20,000 nt of DNA. Origin: an uncultured virus (IMG/VR IMGVR_UViG_3300024500_000029). Taxonomy: Duplodnaviria > Heunggongvirae > Uroviricota > Caudoviricetes. This document shows, one piece after another, positions 2 through 11,995 of this stretch; position 1 is the stretch's first letter; each line of letters begins with the position of its first letter. The stretch lies in IMG/VR virus record IMGVR_UViG_3300024500_000029. The stretch is one strand, 5' to 3'. A program made the translations under genes and the position numbers. The notes under the pieces were generated by a model. It made no database searches and had not been told where the DNA came from. It saw only the letters and a list, made by a program, of their open reading frames with translations.

Positions 2-415
2 GACTTAATAGATAGTGGTGAGTTTCCCTTACACTCGGCTTATTTCGAAGCATTGATGATAGCCAAGCCTAACCAGTATTTTTTACAGAGCGATTTTGAC
101 AAAAAATGGCCTGAGTATGGATACAGAGATCTAGGTAGTGAGGGTCAGGGCATACTCAACTGGGCTAACGATCATATGAACTTTGACCAGGCTAGAGAAA
201 AGAAAACAGAACTAGTGACTAGGTTGCAGCAAAGCAGTCGTTACCATATCCCTGGGCAAACCGCCTGGGCTCTAATGAACTATAATAATTTTACGCTGGA
301 CAGAGTGCAAAATTTAAAAAACATAGAAATAGACTGGCAGGAAGTCAAGGACAGCAAACAGGCTTTTGTAACAGAATACAAGCAGAAAATGCTTGCTTTT
401 TTAGCAACTAATTAG
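2..415 (+). CDS. Hypothetical protein, C-terminal part (truncated by window edge)
   Basis: The frame is open from position 2 to the TAG at 413-415. The ORF-track start at 53 is a TTG and probably not the true start. Confidence 0.7.
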   Translation, partial: DLIDSGEFPLHSAYFEALMIAKPNQYFLQSDFDKKWPEYGYRDLGSEGQGILNWANDHMNFDQAREKKTELVTRLQQSSRYHIPGQTAWALMNYNNFTLDRVQNLKNIEIDWQEVKDSKQAFVTEYKQKMLAFLATN

Positions 416-458
416 CAAAATTACAACAGTTGACATTAATGCACCAAATCGTTAAAAT
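392..458 (+). promoter_or_regulatory. Sigma70-type promoter with upstream palindromic operator-like sites
   Basis: TTGACA 430-435, 17-nt spacer, TAAAAT 453-458. CTTGC-N7-GCAAC at 392-408 and a degenerate second site at 412-427. Confidence 0.75.
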
Positions 459-488
459 AGCGGTATAGTAAACGATAAGGAGCAAGCA

Positions 489-731
489 ATGTTAACAACT
501 AAACAAGCACGTGAAATTGTTAATAAACAAATTAAATATTTTCAGAGCTGGACGGATAAAAGTCGCGCTAGTGATGGTGAAGCGATGCGTAATGTTTGTT
601 TTCACGTGGGCTACCTTACTAAAGAAAGTGATATTGCTAAAATTAAAAATAGTCTAGAGCTTGCTGGGCATACTGGCAAGACTAGGTTGATGGGTGGTTA
701 TCTGCGTTTAACCAACTTGGAAATAAATTAA
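489..731 (+). CDS. Hypothetical protein (80 aa)
   Basis: AAGGAG RBS just upstream, own promoter, ATG to TAA. Confidence 0.8.
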   Translation: MLTTKQAREIVNKQIKYFQSWTDKSRASDGEAMRNVCFHVGYLTKESDIAKIKNSLELAGHTGKTRLMGGYLRLTNLEIN

Positions 732-743
732 TTAAAAAAGTAG

Positions 744-772
744 TTGACAGTAATTGCACTAGATGATATAAT
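744..772 (+). promoter_or_regulatory. Consensus sigma70 promoter for the tRNA-Leu/ncRNA transcript
   Basis: TTGACA 744-749, 17-nt spacer, TATAAT 767-772. Confidence 0.85.
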
Positions 773-839
773 ATAAGACTGCACTAAACGATGCAGCCCA
801 AGTAGTAGAAAAAAGTTCTATAACAATTAGTAAAACAAT

Positions 840-923
840 GCCCTGGTGGTGGAATGGTAGACACGCTAGTCTTAGGAACTAGTATCGCAAGGTGTGGGAG
901 TTCGAGTCTCCCCTGGGGCACCA
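840..923 (+). tRNA. trnL: tRNA-Leu (TAG)
   Basis: Cloverleaf; anticodon arm CTAGT-CT TAG GA-ACTAG; long variable arm; TTCGAGT T-loop; encoded CCA. Confidence 0.95.
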
Positions 924-1148
924 TATTAAAATATATTAGGTTACCTAGCCAGTAGGGGGCCTAGAAGAGGATAACCACTTGACGGAGTGGCTCTTGCTAG
1001 GTCTCACGAAACCTTGAGATAATATCAGGAGGACGCTGGAACAACTAGGAACGTAATGTGTGACACAGACAAATCCGTGGACGGCACGGTTGGGCAGAGT
1101 TCAAAGGCTGCGATCTCTGTGAAGCATCCTAATATATTTTAATATGGT
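920..1148 (+). ncRNA. Stem-enclosed structured RNA cassette A
   Basis: Perfect 21-bp inverted repeat ACCATATTAAAATATATTAGG (920-940) / CCTAATATATTTTAATATGGT (1128-1148). Interior has several helices (CCTAG/CTAGG, CCAG/CTGG, CCACT/AGTGG, CCGTG/CACGG, CAGAG/CTCTG). Confidence 0.65.
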
Positions 1149-1314
1149 ACAAGACTGTTCATATAACACTGCAATGGGATATGACAGGCTGCGTAAGTGT
1201 ATTGGCTGGCACAGAAGCCCCAGTAGCGGAGAGTTGAAGCACTTGCAGGTGTGGATGAGTTCCGTGACCGGGCGTCTAGGTTGGGTTCGAATCCCATCGC
1301 ATTTGTTTGCACCA
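1146..1314 (+). ncRNA. tRNA-like RNA with expanded anticodon domain
   Basis: D-arm GTGT/GCAC (1197-1212); anticodon-like stem 1213-1220/1270-1277 enclosing 49 nt; T-arm TGGG-TTCGAAT-CCCA; TGCG/CGCA short acceptor helix; 3' ACCA at 1311-1314. Confidence 0.55.
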
Positions 1315-1448
1315 TATTGAAGCACATTTCTGTCATTGCCGTGCCAGCTTCACGGTGAGTACAAGAGTACGGAAGTAGCTACCCGACAGGTTGTACAAAG
1401 TTACAAGTGGGTTAATGACAGCCCCTTGGGAGTGTGTTTCAATATGGT
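1311..1448 (+). ncRNA. Stem-enclosed structured RNA cassette B
   Basis: 20-bp stem ACCATATTGAAGCACATTTC / GGAGTGTGTTTCAATATGGT with 3 G-U pairs; inner helix TGTCATT/AATGACA. Confidence 0.65.
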
Positions 1449-1450
1449 GG

Positions 1451-1479
1451 TTGACATTAAAAGAATTTAGCTGTAATAT
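1451..1479 (+). promoter_or_regulatory. Sigma70-type promoter for the large ncRNA
   Basis: TTGACA 1451-1456, 17-nt spacer, TAATAT 1474-1479. Confidence 0.7.
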
Positions 1480-1485
1480 AGATAC

Positions 1486-2370
1486 TTAGGGAGTTTAATC
1501 TCTTGTTAGGCGGTTCGCCGTCTAACTAAGGATAAGTGGCGTGAGTCACCCAAAGCAGAATCCTCCTACAGGACTGCGCCAGAGATGGTCCAGTTAAACA
1601 AGCCTGCTCACTACCGCGAGGTAGCGATCACTGATAAGACCGGTGGTTGTAACAATGAAGCTGGTGTAGTGGAAAGAACTTGTATCGACTAGCCCGCAAG
1701 GGAACTAGGGTGCAAGGAAAGTAACAGGTGGTGCTGACTTCACTACAAAACCAACCAGTTAGTTGGTATGAGAAAGGGTAGTGCATTTGTCCAAGGTTTC
1801 GCAGCCAAGGGCTTGTGTGCAGTATGAATGGTACTTGGGGCTGCTGTGAGGCGTCACAAGAATCGTGAAATACTACTGAGTAGCCGGCAGGCGAAAGGTA
1901 CGTGGTGTGTTGTATCGTGTATTCCAAAAGAGTATGCGGCAACTGGAGCAGCACATCATAGTAGGTTGATATAGCTCATTGGTAGAGCAACAGTCCTTTT
2001 AAACTGTAGGCAGTTGGTTCAAATCCAACTATCATTAAACAAAAACGCAAAGACTGCTCCGGTTGTATGTGAAAAGCATCTAACACTTAGGGCGTAAGCT
2101 AACTAAGTTCAGTCTAACCCGCAAGGTGAAACTGATTTGTACTAGAAGATTCGTAGCTCGCAAGGCTTAATGGACCGCAAGTTCAACGGGTAATAAGGTA
2201 CAGAGTAGCATACAATGACAAGACTACTGCCTGTCTTTAAACGGCGATGCTGCAAGCAGACTGGATCACATAGCGATATGGATCTTGTGGATGTCGTGGA
2301 GAAGATTGGCTCGCAAGGCTGACTATAATACCCGAGGTGCTTGTAGTTAAGATGTAATCTCAGTCTTAAC
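1486..2370 (+). ncRNA. Large ornate ncRNA, GOLLD-like (~885 nt)
   Basis: No credible ORF; GC-richer than flanks; many GNRA-capped hairpins (CCC-GCAA-GGG, CTACC-GCGA-GGTAG, GC-GTAA-GC); 13-bp helix 1939-1951/2054-2066; terminal hairpin 2346-2370. Size, phage tRNA-cluster context and internal tRNA-like domain match what is known of GOLLD RNAs. Family not verified by covariance search; ends approximate. Confidence 0.65.
1965..2036 (+). tRNA. tRNA-Lys-like domain embedded in the large ncRNA (8-nt anticodon loop, no CCA)
   Basis: TAGCTCATTGGTAGAGC D-arm; ACAGT-CCTTTTAA-ACTGT anticodon arm; GTTGG-TTCAAAT-CCAAC T-arm; imperfect acceptor GTTGATA/TATCATT. Confidence 0.7.
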
Positions 2371-2461
2371 ACTTTCTAAAACACATTGTAGTGGATTTCA
2401 CAAGTATGAGTCGCATTCTAAAGAGTGCCCTTGAGATTGGATATAGTGTGTTTCAGAAAGT
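2371..2461 (+). ncRNA. Stem-enclosed RNA cassette C
   Basis: ACTTTCTAAAACACATTGTA (2371-2390) pairs with TATAGTGTGTTTCAGAAAGT (2442-2461), with one A-C mismatch and G-U pairs. Same core as cassettes B and E. Confidence 0.6.
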
Positions 2462-2470
2462 CAAGAATCC

Positions 2471-2654
2471 GGTTACTACTTTCCTAAAAGTAGCGTATGG
2501 CACACGACAAGGCCCGGTGGCTAGGGCACCGTTAGCGTTACTAGAGACAGACGACCTAGCAGCGTGGACACTTCGTCGGCCGTCTGCCAAACAGTGTTCG
2601 GACAGGGTAACAACTCCAGGATAGGGGCGACCGTGGAAAAGCGTGGCCTAACCA
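2471..2654 (+). ncRNA. Unknown structured ncRNA (~184 nt)
   Basis: GGTTA/TAACC end pairing and 3' ACCA; hairpins CTACTTT/AAAGTAG, CGGTG/CACCG, CTAG/CTAG; possible pseudoknot CAGACG/CGTCTG. Confidence 0.5.
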
Positions 2655-2655
2655 A

Positions 2656-2814
2656 TATATTAGCAAGTGTTATCGATGAAACATTGGGTATCGTAAACTG
2701 ATCATTTACTATGCGGGCCTAACTGGCGTGGAACAGGTCCTGACATAACCAGCCATACGCTCTGGAACGGAAGCACCGGACTCCTAAATTGGCACGATAG
2801 CACTTACTAATATA
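2656..2814 (+). ncRNA. Stem-enclosed RNA cassette D
   Basis: TATATTAGCAAGTGTTATCG (2656-2675) pairs with CGATAGCACTTACTAATATA (2795-2814); 19 of 20 positions paired, including one G-U. Confidence 0.6.
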
Positions 2815-2826
2815 ATACTAATATAA

Positions 2827-2901
2827 GGTTCCATAGTATATCGGTTAGTACACCGCCCTGTCACGGCAGAAGGAGGGGTTCGACTCCCCTTGGGACCGCC
2901 A
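2827..2901 (+). tRNA. trnD: tRNA-Asp (GTC)
   Basis: GGTTCCA/TGGGACC acceptor, CT GTC AC loop, TTCGACT T-loop, GCCA end. Confidence 0.92.
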
Positions 2902-2976
2902 AGTTTCTCTACACTACATCTAAGCCTTGATAGGTAGGGGAAGGCAGGTGGCTTAGGCTTGCCGAGAGTTTTTATT

Positions 2977-3053
2977 GCACCGTTAGACATCTGGTTGAGG
3001 TCACCACCCTTTCAAGGTGGCTAGAGCGGGTTCGAATCCCCTACGGTGTACCA
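2977..3053 (+). tRNA. trnE: tRNA-Glu (TTC)
   Basis: GCACCGT/ACGGTGT acceptor, CCACC-CT TTC AA-GGTGG arm, CCA end. Confidence 0.92.
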
Positions 3054-3164
3054 AGATGCACAGTGTCGCTTTACGCTGTGGCAGGACGGCCTCTGTATCC
3101 TAGGACTCAAGCCTCTCAGACTGCAACTAGAGTTCTCGCAAAAGAACATAGCAAGATTTAGATT

Positions 3165-3251
3165 GGGTGCTTAGTCCCGTAATGGTATCGGGGGCAGACT
3201 GTAAATCTGTTGTCTTTGGCCTTCTCTGTTCGAATCGGAGAGCACCCACCA
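3165..3251 (+). tRNA. trnY: tRNA-Tyr (GTA)
   Basis: GGGTGCT/AGCACCC acceptor, GCAGA-CT GTA AA-TCTGT arm, long variable arm, CCA end. Confidence 0.92.
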
Positions 3252-3267
3252 AGTTAAGAAAGTAGAT

Positions 3268-3471
3268 ATGTATAAAGTATATTGGACCTACGGTGATGAA
3301 ACCTACGGTCAAGAATTTGAAGATATGACAGAAGCACTTAATTATTGTCAGCATCTTAGAAGTACTGGTAGAAAGTATGTTACTATGTGCAGCGAGCTTG
3401 CTGATATGGTTGGCGAGTTTGGTGTAACGGAAACTGGACCTGGTTATGATTGGAAAAAACGTAGAGATTAA
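3268..3471 (+). CDS. Hypothetical protein (67 aa)
   Basis: Fills the gap between two tRNAs exactly; protein-like composition. Confidence 0.75.
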   Translation: MYKVYWTYGDETYGQEFEDMTEALNYCQHLRSTGRKYVTMCSELADMVGEFGVTETGPGYDWKKRRD

Positions 3472-3472
3472 T

Positions 3473-3550
3473 CCGTCCTTAGCTCAGTAGGATTAGAGCA
3501 TCAGGCTACGAACTTGAAGGTCGGGGGTTCGACTCCCTCAGGACGGTCCA
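3473..3550 (+). tRNA. trnR: tRNA-Arg (ACG)
   Basis: CCGTCCT/AGGACGG acceptor, CT ACG AA loop, CCA end. Confidence 0.93.
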
Positions 3551-3561
3551 AAAATAATTAA

Positions 3562-3807
3562 ATGGATTTAATAAAAAACATTTCAGAGAAAGCCAAGGAG
3601 TCAGTGCCCAAGGGAGTACTGGCTCCTGACCTTTGGATAGAACATTATAATAAAATATTTGCTAGGTTAGTTGTACAGGAATGTCTAGACATTTTAAATG
3701 AACACATTCGGGAAGACAGTAAAGAAGAGAGGGATATATACTTAAAAAGTTTTAGACAGGATCTAAAACAACATTTTGGTCTAGGGAGAAATCAAGACAA
3801 TGAATAG
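3562..3807 (+). CDS. Hypothetical protein (A-x-L-V/I-V-Q-E-C paralog 1)
   Basis: ORF in an overlapping gene chain; FARLVVQECL ... KQHFGL shared with the next ORF. Confidence 0.75.
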   Translation: MDLIKNISEKAKESVPKGVLAPDLWIEHYNKIFARLVVQECLDILNEHIREDSKEERDIYLKSFRQDLKQHFGLGRNQDNE

Positions 3808-4096
3808 CAATCTATTGGACGACCTTATGTATCAAGCAGGTATGACTGCTCAGGGTTGCTGGGACAATCTTGACGATTATGATAAAGAGGCCATACTGAG
3901 ATTGGCTAAATTAATAGTGCAAGAGTGTGTAAAATCTTGCGGTAGCCAGGCAGACAAGGCTAACATCTTAAAAACTTTTGGCCTGCCTGTGGAATCCAAT
4001 GTTAAATATATTAGTCCTGAAGCATCAGGTAGTGTGGACTCTCAATATAGAAGAAGATATAACCTAGCACCCACTCAGGGAGTAAATAATGACTAA
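3800..4096 (+). CDS. Hypothetical protein (paralog 2)
   Basis: LAKLIVQECV ... LKTFGL; overlaps the previous gene's end. Confidence 0.75.
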   Translation: MNSNLLDDLMYQAGMTAQGCWDNLDDYDKEAILRLAKLIVQECVKSCGSQADKANILKTFGLPVESNVKYISPEASGSVDSQYRRRYNLAPTQGVNND

Positions 4097-4238
4097 GAAA
4101 AAAGTCAAAACTGATACTGAACTAGATAAAAAATGTAATGCAGCAATAAAAAGAGTTAATAAACATATAGATACACTTGTTGCACGACATTTAAAAGAGA
4201 TGGGACTTGTCGTAACTGATACTAAAAAAATAATTTAA
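4089..4238 (+). CDS. Small basic hypothetical protein (49 aa, MTKKKVKTDTELDKKCN...)
   Basis: Below the ORF-track cutoff. GGAG RBS; its TAA overlaps the next ATG (TAATG). Confidence 0.6.
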   Translation: MTKKKVKTDTELDKKCNAAIKRVNKHIDTLVARHLKEMGLVVTDTKKII

Positions 4239-5290
4239 TGAAACCCAGTCATTTTTATTTCGACGATAAAATATTAGAACGCGAACAATTACTTTTTAAA
4301 CAGGCAAGATATCTAGGACACGAACTATCTGTCAATAACTATCGCACACTTCCACAGGACAATAGTGGTAGAGTGTTAGTTAAAAACAACAACGGTATAG
4401 AGTGTATAGAAAATGTCTGCCGCCACCGCCAAGCAGTAATGCTAACAGGCAGTGGAGAAACATCAAACATTATTTGTCCATTACACGGCTGGACCTACAA
4501 TCTAGAAGGCGAACTTGTTGGCGCCCCACATTTTGATCCTTGCCCTAATAGACCACTAAGAAAATTTAGCACACAGAGCTGGAACGGTCTATTTTTTGAA
4601 TCAGGTAAGTTTAACATTGTTCGAGATCTTATTGGTATGAGAGCTGGTAAGTATTTTGATTTTAACAATTACCAGTACCATAGCACTCAGGAACATCATT
4701 GTGATTACAACTGGAAGACCTTTATAGAAGTCTACCTAGACGATTATCACGTGGTACCTTTCCATCCTGGCCTTGGTAATTTTGTAGATTGTAATAAACT
4801 AGACTGGCAGTTTGGTGACTGGTATAGTGTGCAGACTGTGGGAGTTCATAATGAATTGCGCACTCCCGGTACACCAGTTTATCGTCGCTGGCACGATGTA
4901 TTAATGAATTATCGTAAGGGACAAATACCTGAATTTGGGGCAATATGGCTGACCATCTATCCTAATGTAATGGTGGAATGGTATCCTGAAGTTTTAGTAA
5001 TTTCTAGTCTGTGGCCGGAAACACCACAGCGCACAAAAAATATTGTTGAATTTTATTATCCCGAGGATATAGCTTTATTTGAACCTGAGTTTGTTCAAGC
5101 TCATCAGGCTGCCTATATGGAAACCTGTTATGAAGATGATGAAATAGCAAGGCGTATGGATCAGGGTAGATGTCATCTTAATAACAATAATTATAGTGAT
5201 TACGGACCTGTACACAATCCTATGGAACTAGGTCTAGAATATTTTTACAAGTATTACAACAATTATGTTTTTGGTTTATTTGGCGAATAA
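4238..5290 (+). CDS. Rieske non-heme iron oxygenase alpha subunit (ring-hydroxylating / choline monooxygenase-like)
   Basis: Rieske ligands CRH ... CPLHGW; catalytic motif NWKTFIEVYLDDYHVVPFH; C-terminal EDDEI. Confidence 0.9.
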   Translation: MKPSHFYFDDKILEREQLLFKQARYLGHELSVNNYRTLPQDNSGRVLVKNNNGIECIENVCRHRQAVMLTGSGETSNIICPLHGWTYNLEGELVGAPHFDPCPNRPLRKFSTQSWNGLFFESGKFNIVRDLIGMRAGKYFDFNNYQYHSTQEHHCDYNWKTFIEVYLDDYHVVPFHPGLGNFVDCNKLDWQFGDWYSVQTVGVHNELRTPGTPVYRRWHDVLMNYRKGQIPEFGAIWLTIYPNVMVEWYPEVLVISSLWPETPQRTKNIVEFYYPEDIALFEPEFVQAHQAAYMETCYEDDEIARRMDQGRCHLNNNNYSDYGPVHNPMELGLEYFYKYYNNYVFGLFGE

Positions 5291-6267: not shown

Positions 6268-6288
6268 TATTATCGCGTGTGAGGAAGT

Positions 6289-6374
6289 CGCCTTTACTGA
6301 CGGCGTACAGTAGGATAAATTGTCAGTAGTCTACAGACCCCGTCTTAGCAGTCTCGGACGATAAACGAGACTGC
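6289..6374 (+). ncRNA. Putative pseudoknot plus hairpin element
   Basis: CGCC/GGCG stem whose loop TACTGAC pairs with GTCAGTA (6322-6328); perfect 9-bp hairpin GCAGTCTCG/CGAGACTGC (6348-6374). Confidence 0.4.
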
Positions 6375-6440
6375 ATATTGAAGCACATTGCGATGCCGTT
6401 CCGCGGCGGCGACCACAACGAGAGTAGTGTGTTTCAATAT
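6375..6440 (+). ncRNA. Stem-enclosed RNA cassette E
   Basis: ATATTGAAGCACATTGC / GTAGTGTGTTTCAATAT, 17 bp with 3 G-U pairs; 15 nt of each arm identical to cassette B. Confidence 0.6.
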
Positions 6441-6976
6441 TAATACCAAAGATGGTAAGGTTCAGGTTTAAATCTCATTGAGAATATAGCTCTAAGTTTA
6501 TCCTGGTTATTTTCCACACTGTGTGGTATATCTACTCTAACTAGATGTGGTGTGGTAAGAGCAAGGCCAGCTAATTTAATTTTATTCTCACCGTCCATTT
6601 TGGCAATATTGTTACCGTAGGATTGATGACTACGATATTCCACAATATCTACATTATCCCACCAGATCATTTCCGACTGATCGCAGTTTAGTAGTGGTAA
6701 GTTAAGACTAAAAATTCTGGAAACTTCCGAATTTCCGTCTACGTGGATGTATAACCCATCTCTAGGTGGAGTTACAAAAAATCTTCCTACATCTAGTACA
6801 AGATTGTTTGCGTTAAAAAACTTTACTAGTTCTGGGCAATATTGTTCTATAAGATCGTGACTGGTAGCCTTGGTGTTTGTAGAATCGAAGTCTGTGATAG
6901 TCTTGTACATAAGATCTATCAGCTTAGGTTTAATAATTTGAAAGTCAGGAAGGTCTATGGCTTTGTAGGGAAGCAT
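6440..6976 (-). CDS. Cupin / 2OG-Fe(II) oxygenase-like protein
   Basis: IHVDG (HxD) ... LNLP ... IPHSVEN ... RAIFSMRF. Confidence 0.65.
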   Translation of the reverse strand: MLPYKAIDLPDFQIIKPKLIDLMYKTITDFDSTNTKATSHDLIEQYCPELVKFFNANNLVLDVGRFFVTPPRDGLYIHVDGNSEVSRIFSLNLPLLNCDQSEMIWWDNVDIVEYRSHQSYGNNIAKMDGENKIKLAGLALTTPHLVRVDIPHSVENNQDKLRAIFSMRFKPEPYHLWY

Positions 6977-6981
6977 AAAAA

Positions 6982-6989
6982 TATTTATA
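6982..6989 (-). promoter_or_regulatory. T4-like late promoter motif TATAAATA
   Basis: The minus strand reads TATAAATA-TTTTT-ATG, directly into the 6976 start; no RBS. Confidence 0.55.
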
Positions 6990-7014
6990 GTGAGTTGTTA
7001 TAGTAAAAGAAAAT

Positions 7015-7090
7015 GGGGGTGTAGCTCAGCTGGGAGAGCAGGACCTTTGCAAGGTCAAGGTAGCGGGTTCGAGTCCTGTCACCTCCACCA
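7015..7090 (+). tRNA. trnA: tRNA-Ala (TGC)
   Basis: G3:U70 pair, TT TGC AA loop, CCA end. Confidence 0.95.
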
Positions 7091-7106
7091 TTTTAAGGAG
7101 TGTATT

Positions 7107-7502
7107 ATGTGGATAGAAAATGTAGCCGCCATTGATGTCAAAAACGGGCATCATTTCGATGCTGGCCCCAATAGTATGTTGATACAAATAGCCGATCCTG
7201 CAGGCTGGTTTCCTACCCCCAAACACTCTTTTAAAGAAGTCCATAGGTTTGAATTTCTAGATGCCGACGATCAAGATGGCTTCCCTGAAGAAACCAAGAT
7301 ATCTAGAACACAGGCACAGGATATCACTTTGTTACTTAAACGTGCAGTGTCTGACAGAATGAATGTAGTAGTACATTGCACAGCAGGTCTCTGTCGTAGT
7401 GGTGCAGTTTGTGAAGTAGGTATTGTTCTAGGACTAGCTGATACTGGAAAGTTTAGACTACCCAATGTGCGTGTCAAAAAGTTTTTGTTGGATGCCATTT
7501 AA
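7107..7502 (+). CDS. Cys-based (PTP/dual-specificity-like) phosphatase
   Basis: HCTAGLCRS CX5R motif; AAGGAG RBS before ATG 7107. The track's 6990 start runs through tRNA-Ala. Confidence 0.8.
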   Translation: MWIENVAAIDVKNGHHFDAGPNSMLIQIADPAGWFPTPKHSFKEVHRFEFLDADDQDGFPEETKISRTQAQDITLLLKRAVSDRMNVVVHCTAGLCRSGAVCEVGIVLGLADTGKFRLPNVRVKKFLLDAI

Positions 7503-8135
7503 CCGTAGCCAATCCTCATAAAACTTTATACTAGTATTGGTAAAGGGAAATCCTAAAGTTTCTAGCCAGTTGTTAAATTTTTGCGGGTTAATAAGGTCTA
7601 AATAATCTATAGTATAGTCTGAATCTAAATTAAAACAAGCAGGCAATAATTCTTGTTCATCAAAACTTTTAAGATAGTATTGTTTAAGTTCTTCTAGAGT
7701 TAGATTTTCTAGATTAAATTTATCCTGTGGTGTTATTTCTATACCTGAAGTCTTTAAAAGATGTATGTGATGATCCACAAGGTGTTCTAATAAAGCGGGA
7801 TAACTTCCTTGTGTGTAGGTTACTGCCAGAGTACAACATCTATCCTGGTACTTTGCTACTATAAAGTTATACTGTTCTAGAGAATTAGTTCCAAACATAA
7901 GATGTTTACCCTGCTTAAATGCAGTATTAATTATACTATCTAGATAATCTTGACTAGATTGCCAGTCAACATTACGGAAGTTTCTGTAATTGCCTTCAAT
8001 TCTTGGTAAAAAGTTTGTAACGATTTCTCCCAGGGCACGTATTTTTAAAAATTTGTCCTCTAGAATATAATCACATATATTATAAAATTGATCCGGTGCA
8101 TTTTTAATAATTTGAGCTCCAGCTATTTCAAACAT
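7458..8135 (-). CDS. Hypothetical protein
   Basis: Long ORF; start at 8135 (MFEIAG) or 8177; TATAAATA on the minus strand at 8199-8206. Confidence 0.7.
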   Translation of the reverse strand: MFEIAGAQIIKNAPDQFYNICDYILEDKFLKIRALGEIVTNFLPRIEGNYRNFRNVDWQSSQDYLDSIINTAFKQGKHLMFGTNSLEQYNFIVAKYQDRCCTLAVTYTQGSYPALLEHLVDHHIHLLKTSGIEITPQDKFNLENLTLEELKQYYLKSFDEQELLPACFNLDSDYTIDYLDLINPQKFNNWLETLGFPFTNTSIKFYEDWLRLNGIQQKLFDTHIG

Positions 8136-8170
8136 ATTAAGTCTTTGTGTTTTGAATAGATAGATAAAAT

Positions 8171-8199
8171 TTGACATCTTGATAGTTTAATAGTAAAAT
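8171..8199 (+). promoter_or_regulatory. Sigma70-type promoter
   Basis: TTGACA 8171-8176, 17-nt spacer, TAAAAT 8194-8199. Confidence 0.6.
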
Positions 8200-8222
8200 A
8201 TTTATAATAAGAGACTTGTATA

Positions 8223-11407: not shown

Positions 11408-11881
11408 ATGGAAAGAAAACTTGATATCGATGCAGTAAAAAAATTTATAGACCAACAAAGTGATAGTACCAAAATTTATATCGGTGCAGACAGTGCCAGA
11501 TATAAAGTTGGTAATAAGTGGTATGCTGATTATACACTGGCTGTGGTAGTGCATATTGATGGTTGTCACGGTTGTAAGATTTTTGGTGAAGTACAGACAG
11601 AAGTTGATTATGATCACAAAGCCAGCCGTCCCAGTATGCGTCTTATGAACGAAGTCTACAAGGTGGCAGAACTCTATCAGAAGTTGGTAGACGTAATTGG
11701 TGATCGTGAGGTACAAATACATCTTGACATTAATCCTGATGAGCGCCATAATAGCAGCATTGTGATACAACAGGCTGTGGGTTATATTCGTGGTGTGTGC
11801 AATGTGATACCAATGGTGAAGCCTCGTGCCTTCGCTGCTAGTTATGCAGCAGATAGGTTAAAAGAAGTCCTAGCAGCCTAG
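11408..11881 (+). CDS. RNase H-like YkuK (DUF458) family protein
   Basis: IYIGADS, RLMNEV, IHLDIN, VKPRAFAASYAAD motifs. Confidence 0.8.
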   Translation: MERKLDIDAVKKFIDQQSDSTKIYIGADSARYKVGNKWYADYTLAVVVHIDGCHGCKIFGEVQTEVDYDHKASRPSMRLMNEVYKVAELYQKLVDVIGDREVQIHLDINPDERHNSSIVIQQAVGYIRGVCNVIPMVKPRAFAASYAADRLKEVLAA

Positions 11882-11887
11882 AAATAA

Positions 11888-11962
11888 ACTTCGGTGGCAG
11901 AATGGTTGATGCTCCCATCTCTAAAATGGGCTAAATGGGTTCGAATCCCATCCGAAGTACCA
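11888..11962 (+). tRNA. Amber suppressor tRNA (anticodon CTA)
   Basis: ACTTCGG/CCGAAGT acceptor, CCCAT-CT CTA AA-ATGGG anticodon arm, ATGGG-TTCGAAT-CCCAT T-arm, ACCA end. Confidence 0.88.
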
Positions 11963-11968
11963 TAATTT

Positions 11969-11995
11969 AACCGCCCCTAGGGGCGGTTTTTCTTT
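11969..11995 (+). terminator. Rho-independent terminator
   Basis: AACCGCCCC-TA-GGGGCGGTT palindrome running into a T-tract. Confidence 0.85.

Follow-up and report, generated by a model that had tools for sequence, protein, structure and literature searches.

Near-invariant hairpin stems between the stable RNAs of a tRNA region in an uncultured freshwater phage

Positions 744–2901 of the window (the whole stretch of 20,000 nucleotides (nt) analysed here, the minus strand of the 88-kb IMG/VR virus record IMGVR_UViG_3300024500_000029) make up the non-coding-RNA portion of a tRNA region; the phage is large, uncultured and of freshwater (riverine) origin. A large phage is indicated because the record, at 88 kb, is estimated to be only ~25% complete; the runs that contain the stretch, DNA runs and six RNA runs (X15–X20) alike, are riverine and freshwater metagenomes, and 29 tRNA calls by ARAGORN extend across ~24 kb of the record in the orientation of the window. 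Among the stable RNAs of this region lie hairpin cassettes, here called A, B and C, whose stems form a hairpin family that is specific to phages and confined to tRNA arrays; on the tRNA strand, both the pairing and the sequence of the stem are under selection. We assign a probability of about 0.5 to the reading that such a stem is an end-defining RNA processing module, its arms cut by a double-strand-specific endonuclease and its interior thereby released. The cassettes found in the window are as follows (z is the folding z-score from 200 shuffles per unit; L-numbers denote viral loci fetched for comparison).

921–1147, + strand: cassette A, perfect 20-bp closing stem (921–940 with 1128–1147), 187-nt interior; free energy −86.1 kcal/mol, z −6.34
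1312–1447, + strand: cassette B, canonical; arms 1312–1326 and 1433–1447, 17 bp including two inner pairs, 106-nt interior; z −5.79
2371–2461, + strand: cassette C, inner stem canonical, outer stem changed; 5 nt past the end of the match to the GOLLD RNA model; z −5.25
6373–6442: one more cassette of the constant-stem type, the outer pairs slightly degenerate; 40-nt interior almost identical to interiors found in L030 and L035

A preliminary description of this DNA had listed four stem cassettes, A to D. All four fold better than shuffled sequences, with none of the 200 shuffles as good in each case, but they are not of one kind: D, whose closing stem covaries freely and which is for that reason set apart from A–C, is a separate family treated below. 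Cassette B, with the arms CCATATTGAAGCACA and TGTGTTTCAATATGG, is a canonical member of the constant-stem family. Cassettes A and C are hybrid members, A keeping the outer 11 bp of the family stem with a different inner stem and C keeping the inner part.

An exact scan with the 3′ arm found at least 131 stretches, in which single matches may be chance, and only paired arms were counted in the collection used here (at most 3 mismatches per arm, interior of 15–260 nt). Paired arms occur at 204 places in 147 loci, some of which overlap, leaving 149 unique cassettes when read on the tRNA strand. A tRNA lies within 50 nt at 104 of the 204 places, and 75 of 173 cassettes start no more than 3 nt from the end of the upstream tRNA, the CCA of the arm being the CCA of the tRNA. 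Read on the tRNA strand, the arm pairs comprise 2403 Watson–Crick, 143 G·U, 32 A·C and 17 other pairs, and the first inner pair is U·G in 122 of the 149 unique cassettes. The excess of G·U over A·C together with the inner U·G indicates that a fold is selected in the RNA of the tRNA strand. Covariation points the same way: among 111 aligned stems (cassette B and the first 110 of the 122 unique cassettes with interiors of 30–80 nt), both sides change at 13 of 17 pairs of the canonical stem compared with 2.5 ± 1.3 in shuffles, a value reached by none of 500.

The sequence of the stem is constrained as well as its pairing. Following tRNA-Lys in the phage of the window and in three others, all 17 positions of the 5′ arm plus two inner bases are identical, as are 14 of the 15 positions of the 3′ arm, whereas the tRNA and the cassette interior differ. 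The near-invariant 17-bp stem is better conserved than the tRNA next to it, and constancy exceeding that of a tRNA gene implies that the duplex has a specific partner. Five genomes that are 94–100% complete hold eight paired cassettes, seven of them inside the tRNA array and one 0.6 kb before it; the same genomes contain 6 unpaired near-matches compared with 9 for a reversed control pattern. The paired pattern with interiors of 27–57 nt had no match in 185,579 cellular genomes. Interiors are 27–134 nt long and can be grouped into recurring families; they have no motif in common (a T-loop-like motif occurs in 19 of 149). The interiors of cassettes A and B and the whole of cassette C had no homologues in the fetched loci, which is weak evidence given their short flanks. 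In L080 a canonical cassette (2238–2325) lies 5 nt past a GOLLD RNA (1768–2233), the same place that cassette C occupies here.

At orthologous places interiors differ and arms stay the same, a pattern that could also arise if the constant arms acted in DNA as recombination or exchange sites, with the RNA hairpin secondary; arms common to many phages would then let interiors and neighbouring RNA genes swap between genomes. Contigs from the metatranscriptome run X19 fit such swapping, as one carries the flanks and arms of cassette B around a different 37-nt interior and another shows 1311–1448 between other flanks; the same interiors (for example one of 33 nt) also recur behind different neighbours in several contigs. 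The 3′ arm directly precedes a −35 motif TTGAC in the window (1447, then 1451) and likewise in L020, L030 and L035. This arrangement recalls the PeSLs of T4-type phages, which are described (PMC2839356) as short conserved stem-loops, often followed by a sigma-70-like promoter, that are tied to swapped modules; they flank small protein genes in hyperplastic regions, act as terminators, mediate modular shuffling and form mini-circles. The cassettes differ from PeSLs in that a promoter follows only some of them, no U-tract follows the stem, and the genes they flank are RNA genes in tRNA arrays and not small open reading frames (ORFs); they also begin at the CCA of a tRNA and carry wobble pairs specific to the RNA strand. 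Furthermore, the arms are inverted repeats, so that recombination within one cassette would invert the interior and not excise it, the conserved G·U and U·G wobbles and compensatory changes point to a selected single-strand fold, and each complete genome has one or two copies, all in or at the tRNA array. On balance we regard a primary role in DNA exchange as rather unlikely. A comparison with REP/BIME and MITE elements leads to a similar contrast: these share with the cassettes short units, conserved inverted terminal sequences and strand-specific wobble pairs, but the eight paired copies in the five complete genomes are not dispersed, the paired pattern is absent from the cellular genomes searched, and interiors are not conserved within the family.

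Four riverine metatranscriptome assemblies, in the form of contigs only, were compared with the window over 400–3700, and RNA contigs extend across 854–2645. The word depth of these contigs cannot rank genes and DNA may be present in RNA libraries, and the following values are to be taken as hints only.

Coding flanks: contig word depth about 3–17
854–1312: contig word depth 26–104
GOLLD (contigs 1510–2362): contig word depth about 700–5000
2487–2645: contig word depth 100–1050

Uncovered and low-depth parts (cassette D, and 1399–1509 in some runs) are no evidence of absence. Adapter letters abut contigs at 956 on the left side and at 2352 and 2643/2645 on the right side, an orientation that would fit + strand RNA if the first mate of the library is antisense. 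Contig ends at 1309 and 1312 (runs X16 and X19) coincide with the ACCA end of a tRNA-derived unit described below, a weak hint of a processed end.

One further contig comes from run X17. It is 243 nt long at depth 26 and reads 1069–1138 followed by 926–1098, which is the head-to-tail joint of a 213-nt unit; its first and last 30 letters are alike. Its length equals that of a 213-nt circle plus 30, as expected for a closed word path at a word length that we take to be 31. The joint 1138→926 lies inside the stem of cassette A, with a 4-nt ambiguity whose range includes both the opposite (blunt) and the 2-nt-staggered cut positions. The joint may derive from a genuine circle or from a linear RNA whose path was closed by a few template switches at TTAA, a tetranucleotide common to both sides; either way this one contig suggests an RNA species with ends in the arms of cassette A. 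In run X15 the same variant of cassette A runs linearly through 912–1624. Two other joints, 883→3195 and 3003→1278, were set aside, as they look like chimeras or relatives sharing tRNA parts.

These observations lead us to propose the following scheme. The stem begins at the CCA of the upstream stable RNA, or just past its 3′ end, and its far end often coincides with the next gene or promoter. Both arms would be cut by a double-strand-specific endonuclease, for which the RNase III of the host is the probable candidate. The upstream RNA would then be left with a short trailer, the downstream leader would be set free, and the variable interior would come away as a small RNA; the constancy of the stem would imply an additional sequence-specific partner. 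The stems have the continuous duplex of ~two helical turns expected of an RNase III-type processing stem: 20 bp in A and 17 bp in B, with further pairs inward. The host enzyme is favoured because no phage copy was found, an RNase III gene having been detected in none of the 16 related or cassette-bearing phage records searched, five of them at least 94% complete. In rRNA operons and in the early transcripts of phage T7, RNase III stems are long duplexes formed by the sequences flanking an RNA, and the cassette stems of 17–20 bp resemble them in that a double-strand cut would release the neighbours. Known RNase III stems covary freely; unlike them, the cassette stem is near-invariant and flanks a short variable interior instead of a functional RNA.

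The suggestion in the preliminary description that stems punctuate the processing of their neighbours is plausible. It gains from the cassette starts at tRNA ends, from the 5-nt spacing between GOLLD and a cassette seen twice, and from the joint 1138→926; it is weakened by the expectation that signals of structure alone should not need a near-invariant stem sequence.

Several points weigh against the processing module. RNase III needs no fixed sequence, and cleavage alone leaves the constancy of the stem unexplained; the host enzyme has to be assumed, since none was found in the 16 phage records; and the processing ends are proposed from assembled contigs only. The permuted contig occurs in one of four runs, and a few reverse-transcriptase switches at the 4-nt TTAA could close it. 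Contigs mainly over cassettes B and D have low depth in most runs while their neighbours have high depth, which would fit by-products of processing and equally well poorly transcribed DNA elements. Finally, the 98% pairing seen in the collection arises by construction, as cassettes were collected by similarity to both arms, although the double changes and the wobble asymmetry are independent of how the cassettes were collected.

A different reading takes each cassette as an autonomous small RNA gene, in which the stem would serve as a shared handle for one sequence-specific protein or RNA partner and the fast-changing interior would be the payload; this might be a decoy or antisense RNA used in the arms race between phage and host. 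The greater constraint on the stem than on the neighbouring tRNA is in line with this, as are interior families conserved across contigs and the roughly ten-fold word depth of cassette A contigs over the coding flanks (again a hint only). A candidate partner would be the YkuK-like RNase-H-fold gene (PF04308, E = 4e-16) at 11408–11881 of the window, between two tRNAs: the family occurs in 6 of the 16 phage records, in each of them within the tRNA array or next to it. As a required partner it was rejected, as it is present in only three of the five complete cassette-bearing genomes; the absence of a common motif in the interiors, and of homologues in the fetched loci for those of A and B, also speaks against payloads of this kind. 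We consider the small-RNA-gene explanation unlikely.

It is also conceivable that the cassettes are units of excision and ligation. Phage tRNA arrays would then encode a family of small RNAs that are circular (dumbbell-shaped) and have interchangeable interiors, and a putative cutting and joining machinery would recognize the invariant stem. RtcB was found in none of the 16 phage records; a T4 Rnl1 search of the same records was also negative, with a silent control, and an RNA_ligase domain (PF09414) was found in one record. We think circular products decidedly unlikely, but if real they would be phage-encoded circular small RNAs, of which none is described in the literature searched.

The stems might, on the other hand, never be cut and serve only as insulators, terminators or protectors of 3′ ends, keeping tRNAs from misfolding or blocking 3′ exonucleases or read-through. 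The hairpins are very stable (z of −5.3 to −6.3), and cassette B closes the transcription unit that begins at 744, just before the promoter-like site at 1451. Terminator hairpins that directly follow tRNAs and are removed by RNase P have been reported in E. coli (PMC4176162). Such roles need no fixed sequence, however; no U-tract follows the stems and a terminator scan lists none at the cassettes, and the joint of the permuted contig lies within a stem. Stems that act solely in this way seem to us very unlikely. The DNA-exchange, small-RNA-gene and insulator explanations are compatible with the processing module and not exclusive of it.

The largest neighbour of the cassettes is a GOLLD RNA with its embedded tRNA.

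1487–2366, + strand: GOLLD RNA; variable 5′ domain ~1487–1901, conserved 3′ domain 1902–2366
1965–2037, + strand: tRNA embedded in the GOLLD linker; called tRNA-??? by ARAGORN, 59.3 bits in Rfam, one inserted loop base

The "GOLLD-like RNA" of the preliminary description is a genuine GOLLD and a new member of that known family: 1902–2366 matches RF02032 with 214.4 bits against a gathering score of 150 (E = 9.4e-60), over positions 1–416 of the 416-position model and without truncation. The 417-nt 5′ region (1485–1901) is homologous to the stretch preceding the 3′ domain in L080 (E = 9e-54), which is itself a GOLLD at 201 bits in Rfam, and to L064. Conservation with L080 starts at ~1491, just past the promoter-like site 1451–1479; the RNA would accordingly be ~880 nt long and promoter-led, with a 5′ end at ~1487 judged from the position of that site. 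For GOLLD, location close to tRNA islands, variability of the 5′ half and tRNAs within the linker have already been described in print, and cryo-EM of another member has revealed self-assembly into a 14-mer cage. The element described here shares with known GOLLD RNAs the full-model match, the variable 5′ half, the linker tRNA and the phage tRNA neighbourhood, occurring as it does in a virus record among the 29 tRNA calls. Peculiar to it is the 8-nt anticodon loop of the embedded tRNA, CCUUUUAA, which leaves the anticodon unassigned. A stem cassette 5 nt past the 3′ end of GOLLD, found here and in L080, does not appear in the examined part of the GOLLD literature. A GOLLD RNA that is promoter-led, tRNA-adjacent and followed by the same constant hairpin as tRNAs links this family to the handling of tRNA ends.

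Some further observations concern this RNA. The loop of the tRNA at 1965–2037 resembles that of tRNA-Lys(UUU) with one additional base, and the tRNA might decode four bases or be a structural insert; the tRNA embedded in the GOLLD of L080 is an ordinary tRNA-Asn. All four RNA runs contain a second contig that tracks the window to 1915 and then diverges. The divergent contig shows apparent compensating changes in the first stem of GOLLD, which indicates a co-occurring related GOLLD variant.

Two further RNA families lie between cassette C and tRNA-Asp.

2466–2655, + strand: ~190-nt pseudoknotted RNA of the GGACAGGGUAACAACUC family, with covariation
2650–2826, + strand: cassette D, immediately before tRNA-Asp; a conserved RNA family of its own, in which the closing stem covaries

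The first of these corresponds to what had been described as a 184-nt RNA. It has 75% identity to a stretch between tRNA-Met and tRNA-Glu of the related phage L020 and recurs in L021; its invariant 17-mer is present in at least 127 viral contigs, and the 17-mer with 4 further letters has a single match in the 185,579 cellular genomes, which we take as chance. The alignment of 31 sequences comprised the RNA of the window, L138 and 29 of the 32 unique full-length matches, from which one identical copy and two near-duplicates had been dropped. Six helices including one pseudoknot were derived, with 86.9% of cells paired compared with 33–48% when partners were slid, both-side changes at 20 of 35 pairs compared with 5–12 in the slid controls, and a covariation score of 0.239 compared with 0.04–0.09, reached by none of 500 shuffles; the structure was derived from the same sequences on which it was tested, which favours it somewhat. 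Covariation therefore supports the RNA as a structured unit, though its thermodynamic stability is unremarkable (z +0.44). With no counterpart in Rfam, it is, judged by the sequences at hand, a large conserved family found in phages only, whose predicted helices and pseudoknot are supported by covariation.

Cassette D folds over 2656–2814 with z −3.29. Homologues are present in 15 fetched loci, and 13 sequences were aligned, omitting one partial match and two matches that scored the same as L020; RNAalifold predicts 37 pairs, with compensatory change in 27. The element adjoins tRNA-Asp both here and in L020, and its 3′ arm contains the promoter-like site at 2789.

Neither the constant-stem cassette, nor the 190-nt family, nor the pre-tRNA-Asp element (cassette D) was found in Rfam 15 or in the literature searched, supplements aside; all three are new to Rfam, whereas GOLLD and its tRNA context are already known. 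The locus thus adds at least three RNA families confined to uncultured phages. Each of the three is widespread among phages of lakes and rivers, and the first two are seen in RNA assemblies. The constant duplex in particular offers a concrete experimental handle on how large phages mature or use RNA clusters. The tRNA cluster of phage T4 contains species 1 and 2 (rnaC, rnaD), stable non-tRNA RNAs co-transcribed with the tRNAs. By description, the region resembles that cluster in placing stable non-tRNA RNAs among phage tRNAs; it differs in that its RNAs exceed species 1 and 2 in size, represent several families and alternate with constant-stem hairpins.

One further unit lies between cassettes A and B.

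1148–1314, + strand: tRNA-derived unit with a T-arm-like hairpin at ~1281–1297 and an ACCA 3′ end at 1311–1314; no predicted tRNA

It had been called a tRNA-like RNA, a claim that was not borne out beyond the T-arm and the ACCA end. ARAGORN at default settings and Rfam RF00005 find no cloverleaf in 1148–1314, and the folding stability of the unit does not exceed that of shuffled sequences (z −0.08). Allowing introns, lowering the thresholds and using tmRNA mode in ARAGORN yielded nothing convincing; the intron-containing calls obtained at lowered thresholds were rejected because their ends miss the CCA. No clear homologue exists among the fetched loci, and a two-sequence profile built with a look-alike in L021 retrieved nothing new except L243. 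A contig of a related strain (the X15 joint 3003→1278) carries the same T-arm behind a Glu-type anticodon arm, and the unit, with its T-arm and ACCA end, is suggestive of derivation from a tRNA. Another recurring tRNA-like RNA, which starts with GGAGUAAUUAACC, has a T-arm and is uncalled as a tRNA, lies between constant-stem cassettes in other phage contigs at the following places.

L023, ~1290–1425: GGAGUAAUUAACC tRNA-like RNA
L068, ~1380–1500, − strand: GGAGUAAUUAACC tRNA-like RNA
L080, 2326–2460: GGAGUAAUUAACC tRNA-like RNA
L092, ~1360–1500, − strand: GGAGUAAUUAACC tRNA-like RNA

The statement that 924–2826 is tiled nearly end to end by structured RNAs therefore holds for A, B, GOLLD, C, the 190-nt RNA and D, but not for 1148–1314. 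The accompanying statement that 924–2826 has no credible coding sequence stands. The longest frames inside it are of 108 amino acids (aa; − strand, within GOLLD) and 77 aa (+ strand), and of 10 shadow ORFs compared with PHROG and Pfam, none has a match at E ≤ 1. G+C content is 0.43–0.49 over 901–3300 compared with 0.35–0.42 in the coding flanks. One could still suppose that the region partly encodes small proteins and that the folds are incidental, as ORFs of 44–108 aa are present on both strands. The largest of them are antisense within GOLLD or span two separately conserved RNAs, and the alignments contain compensatory changes at paired positions and indels whose lengths are not divisible by three, which, with the lack of any family match, makes this extremely improbable.

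Database comparisons set the region in context. The Rfam search that had been recommended as a check places, besides GOLLD, only tRNAs at curated scores over 600–3400 (E ≤ 10), and tRNAs and GOLLD only at the gathering score over L020, L021, L080 and L064; weaker rows such as manA and mascRNA were rejected, being far below their cut-offs. Among GenBank phages 443 records match, none across 80% or more of the query, and the matches are confined to the tRNAs and to 1877–2128 (GOLLD with its tRNA), the latter in Sinorhizobium phage Phosso and in Caulobacter phiCbK-type phages; this search gave no match to the cassettes or the 190-nt RNA. Synteny was followed through the Rieske gene in 17 loci, and the array lies upstream of the gene in none of them but the identical copy L004; GOLLD is absent from all 16 of the Rieske-gene records, which proves little as they are mostly partial. 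The flanking ORF at 2–412 retrieved the identical copy alone.

The promoter-like sites, which are sigma-70-type consensus matches only, and the tRNAs of the region are as follows.

744–772, + strand: promoter-like site P1; TTGACA, 17-nt spacer, TATAAT, a TG ahead of the second hexamer; 12 of 12 consensus positions; upstream of tRNA-Leu
1451–1479, + strand: promoter-like site P2; TTGACA, 17-nt spacer, TAATAT; 10 of 12; 3 nt after cassette B and leading into GOLLD
2789–2816, + strand: promoter-like site P3; TTGGCA, 16-nt spacer, TATAAT; 11 of 12; within the cassette D 3′ arm, 10 nt ahead of tRNA-Asp
840–923, + strand: tRNA-Leu(UAG), 54.1 bits; its CCA (921–923) is the first 3 nt of the cassette A 5′ arm
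2827–2901, + strand: tRNA-Asp(GUC), 52.7 bits

P1 and P2 agree with the two promoters claimed previously, as matches to the consensus. P3 was absent from the earlier list, and L020 has a similar TTGGCA / TATTAT layout ahead of its tRNA-Asp. The reading of the region as an RNA operon is supported: all units lie on the tRNA strand, the promoter-like sites point inward, and RNA contigs extend across most of it. A single polycistron does not fit the presence of at least two or three promoter-led units. In the arrangement we propose, two or three host-type promoters would drive stable RNAs, all from one strand: a unit from 744 with tRNA-Leu, cassette A, the tRNA-derived RNA and cassette B; a unit from 1451 with GOLLD and its linker tRNA, cassette C, the 190-nt pseudoknotted RNA and cassette D; and a unit from 2789 with tRNA-Asp.

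Downstream of these units, ORF-free spacers separate tRNAs at 2902–2976, which contains a terminator-like hairpin (2943–2963), and at 3054–3165, to which a stretch of L059 is homologous (E = 1e-17). Next comes, at 3165–3251, a likely tRNA-Tyr(GUA) whose variable arm is long; ARAGORN and Rfam miss it at default settings, its layout is like that of the tRNA-Tyr of L020, and RNA contig depth is raised over it in two runs. Farther along, ~2 kb around tRNA-Ala (6268–8222) has minus-strand ORFs only, none of them with a Pfam match, and may hold non-coding RNAs. At 11888–11962 there is a tRNA with anticodon CUA, labelled "Pyl" by ARAGORN and of amber-suppressor type, and a strong terminator-like hairpin lies downstream of it at 11969–11988.

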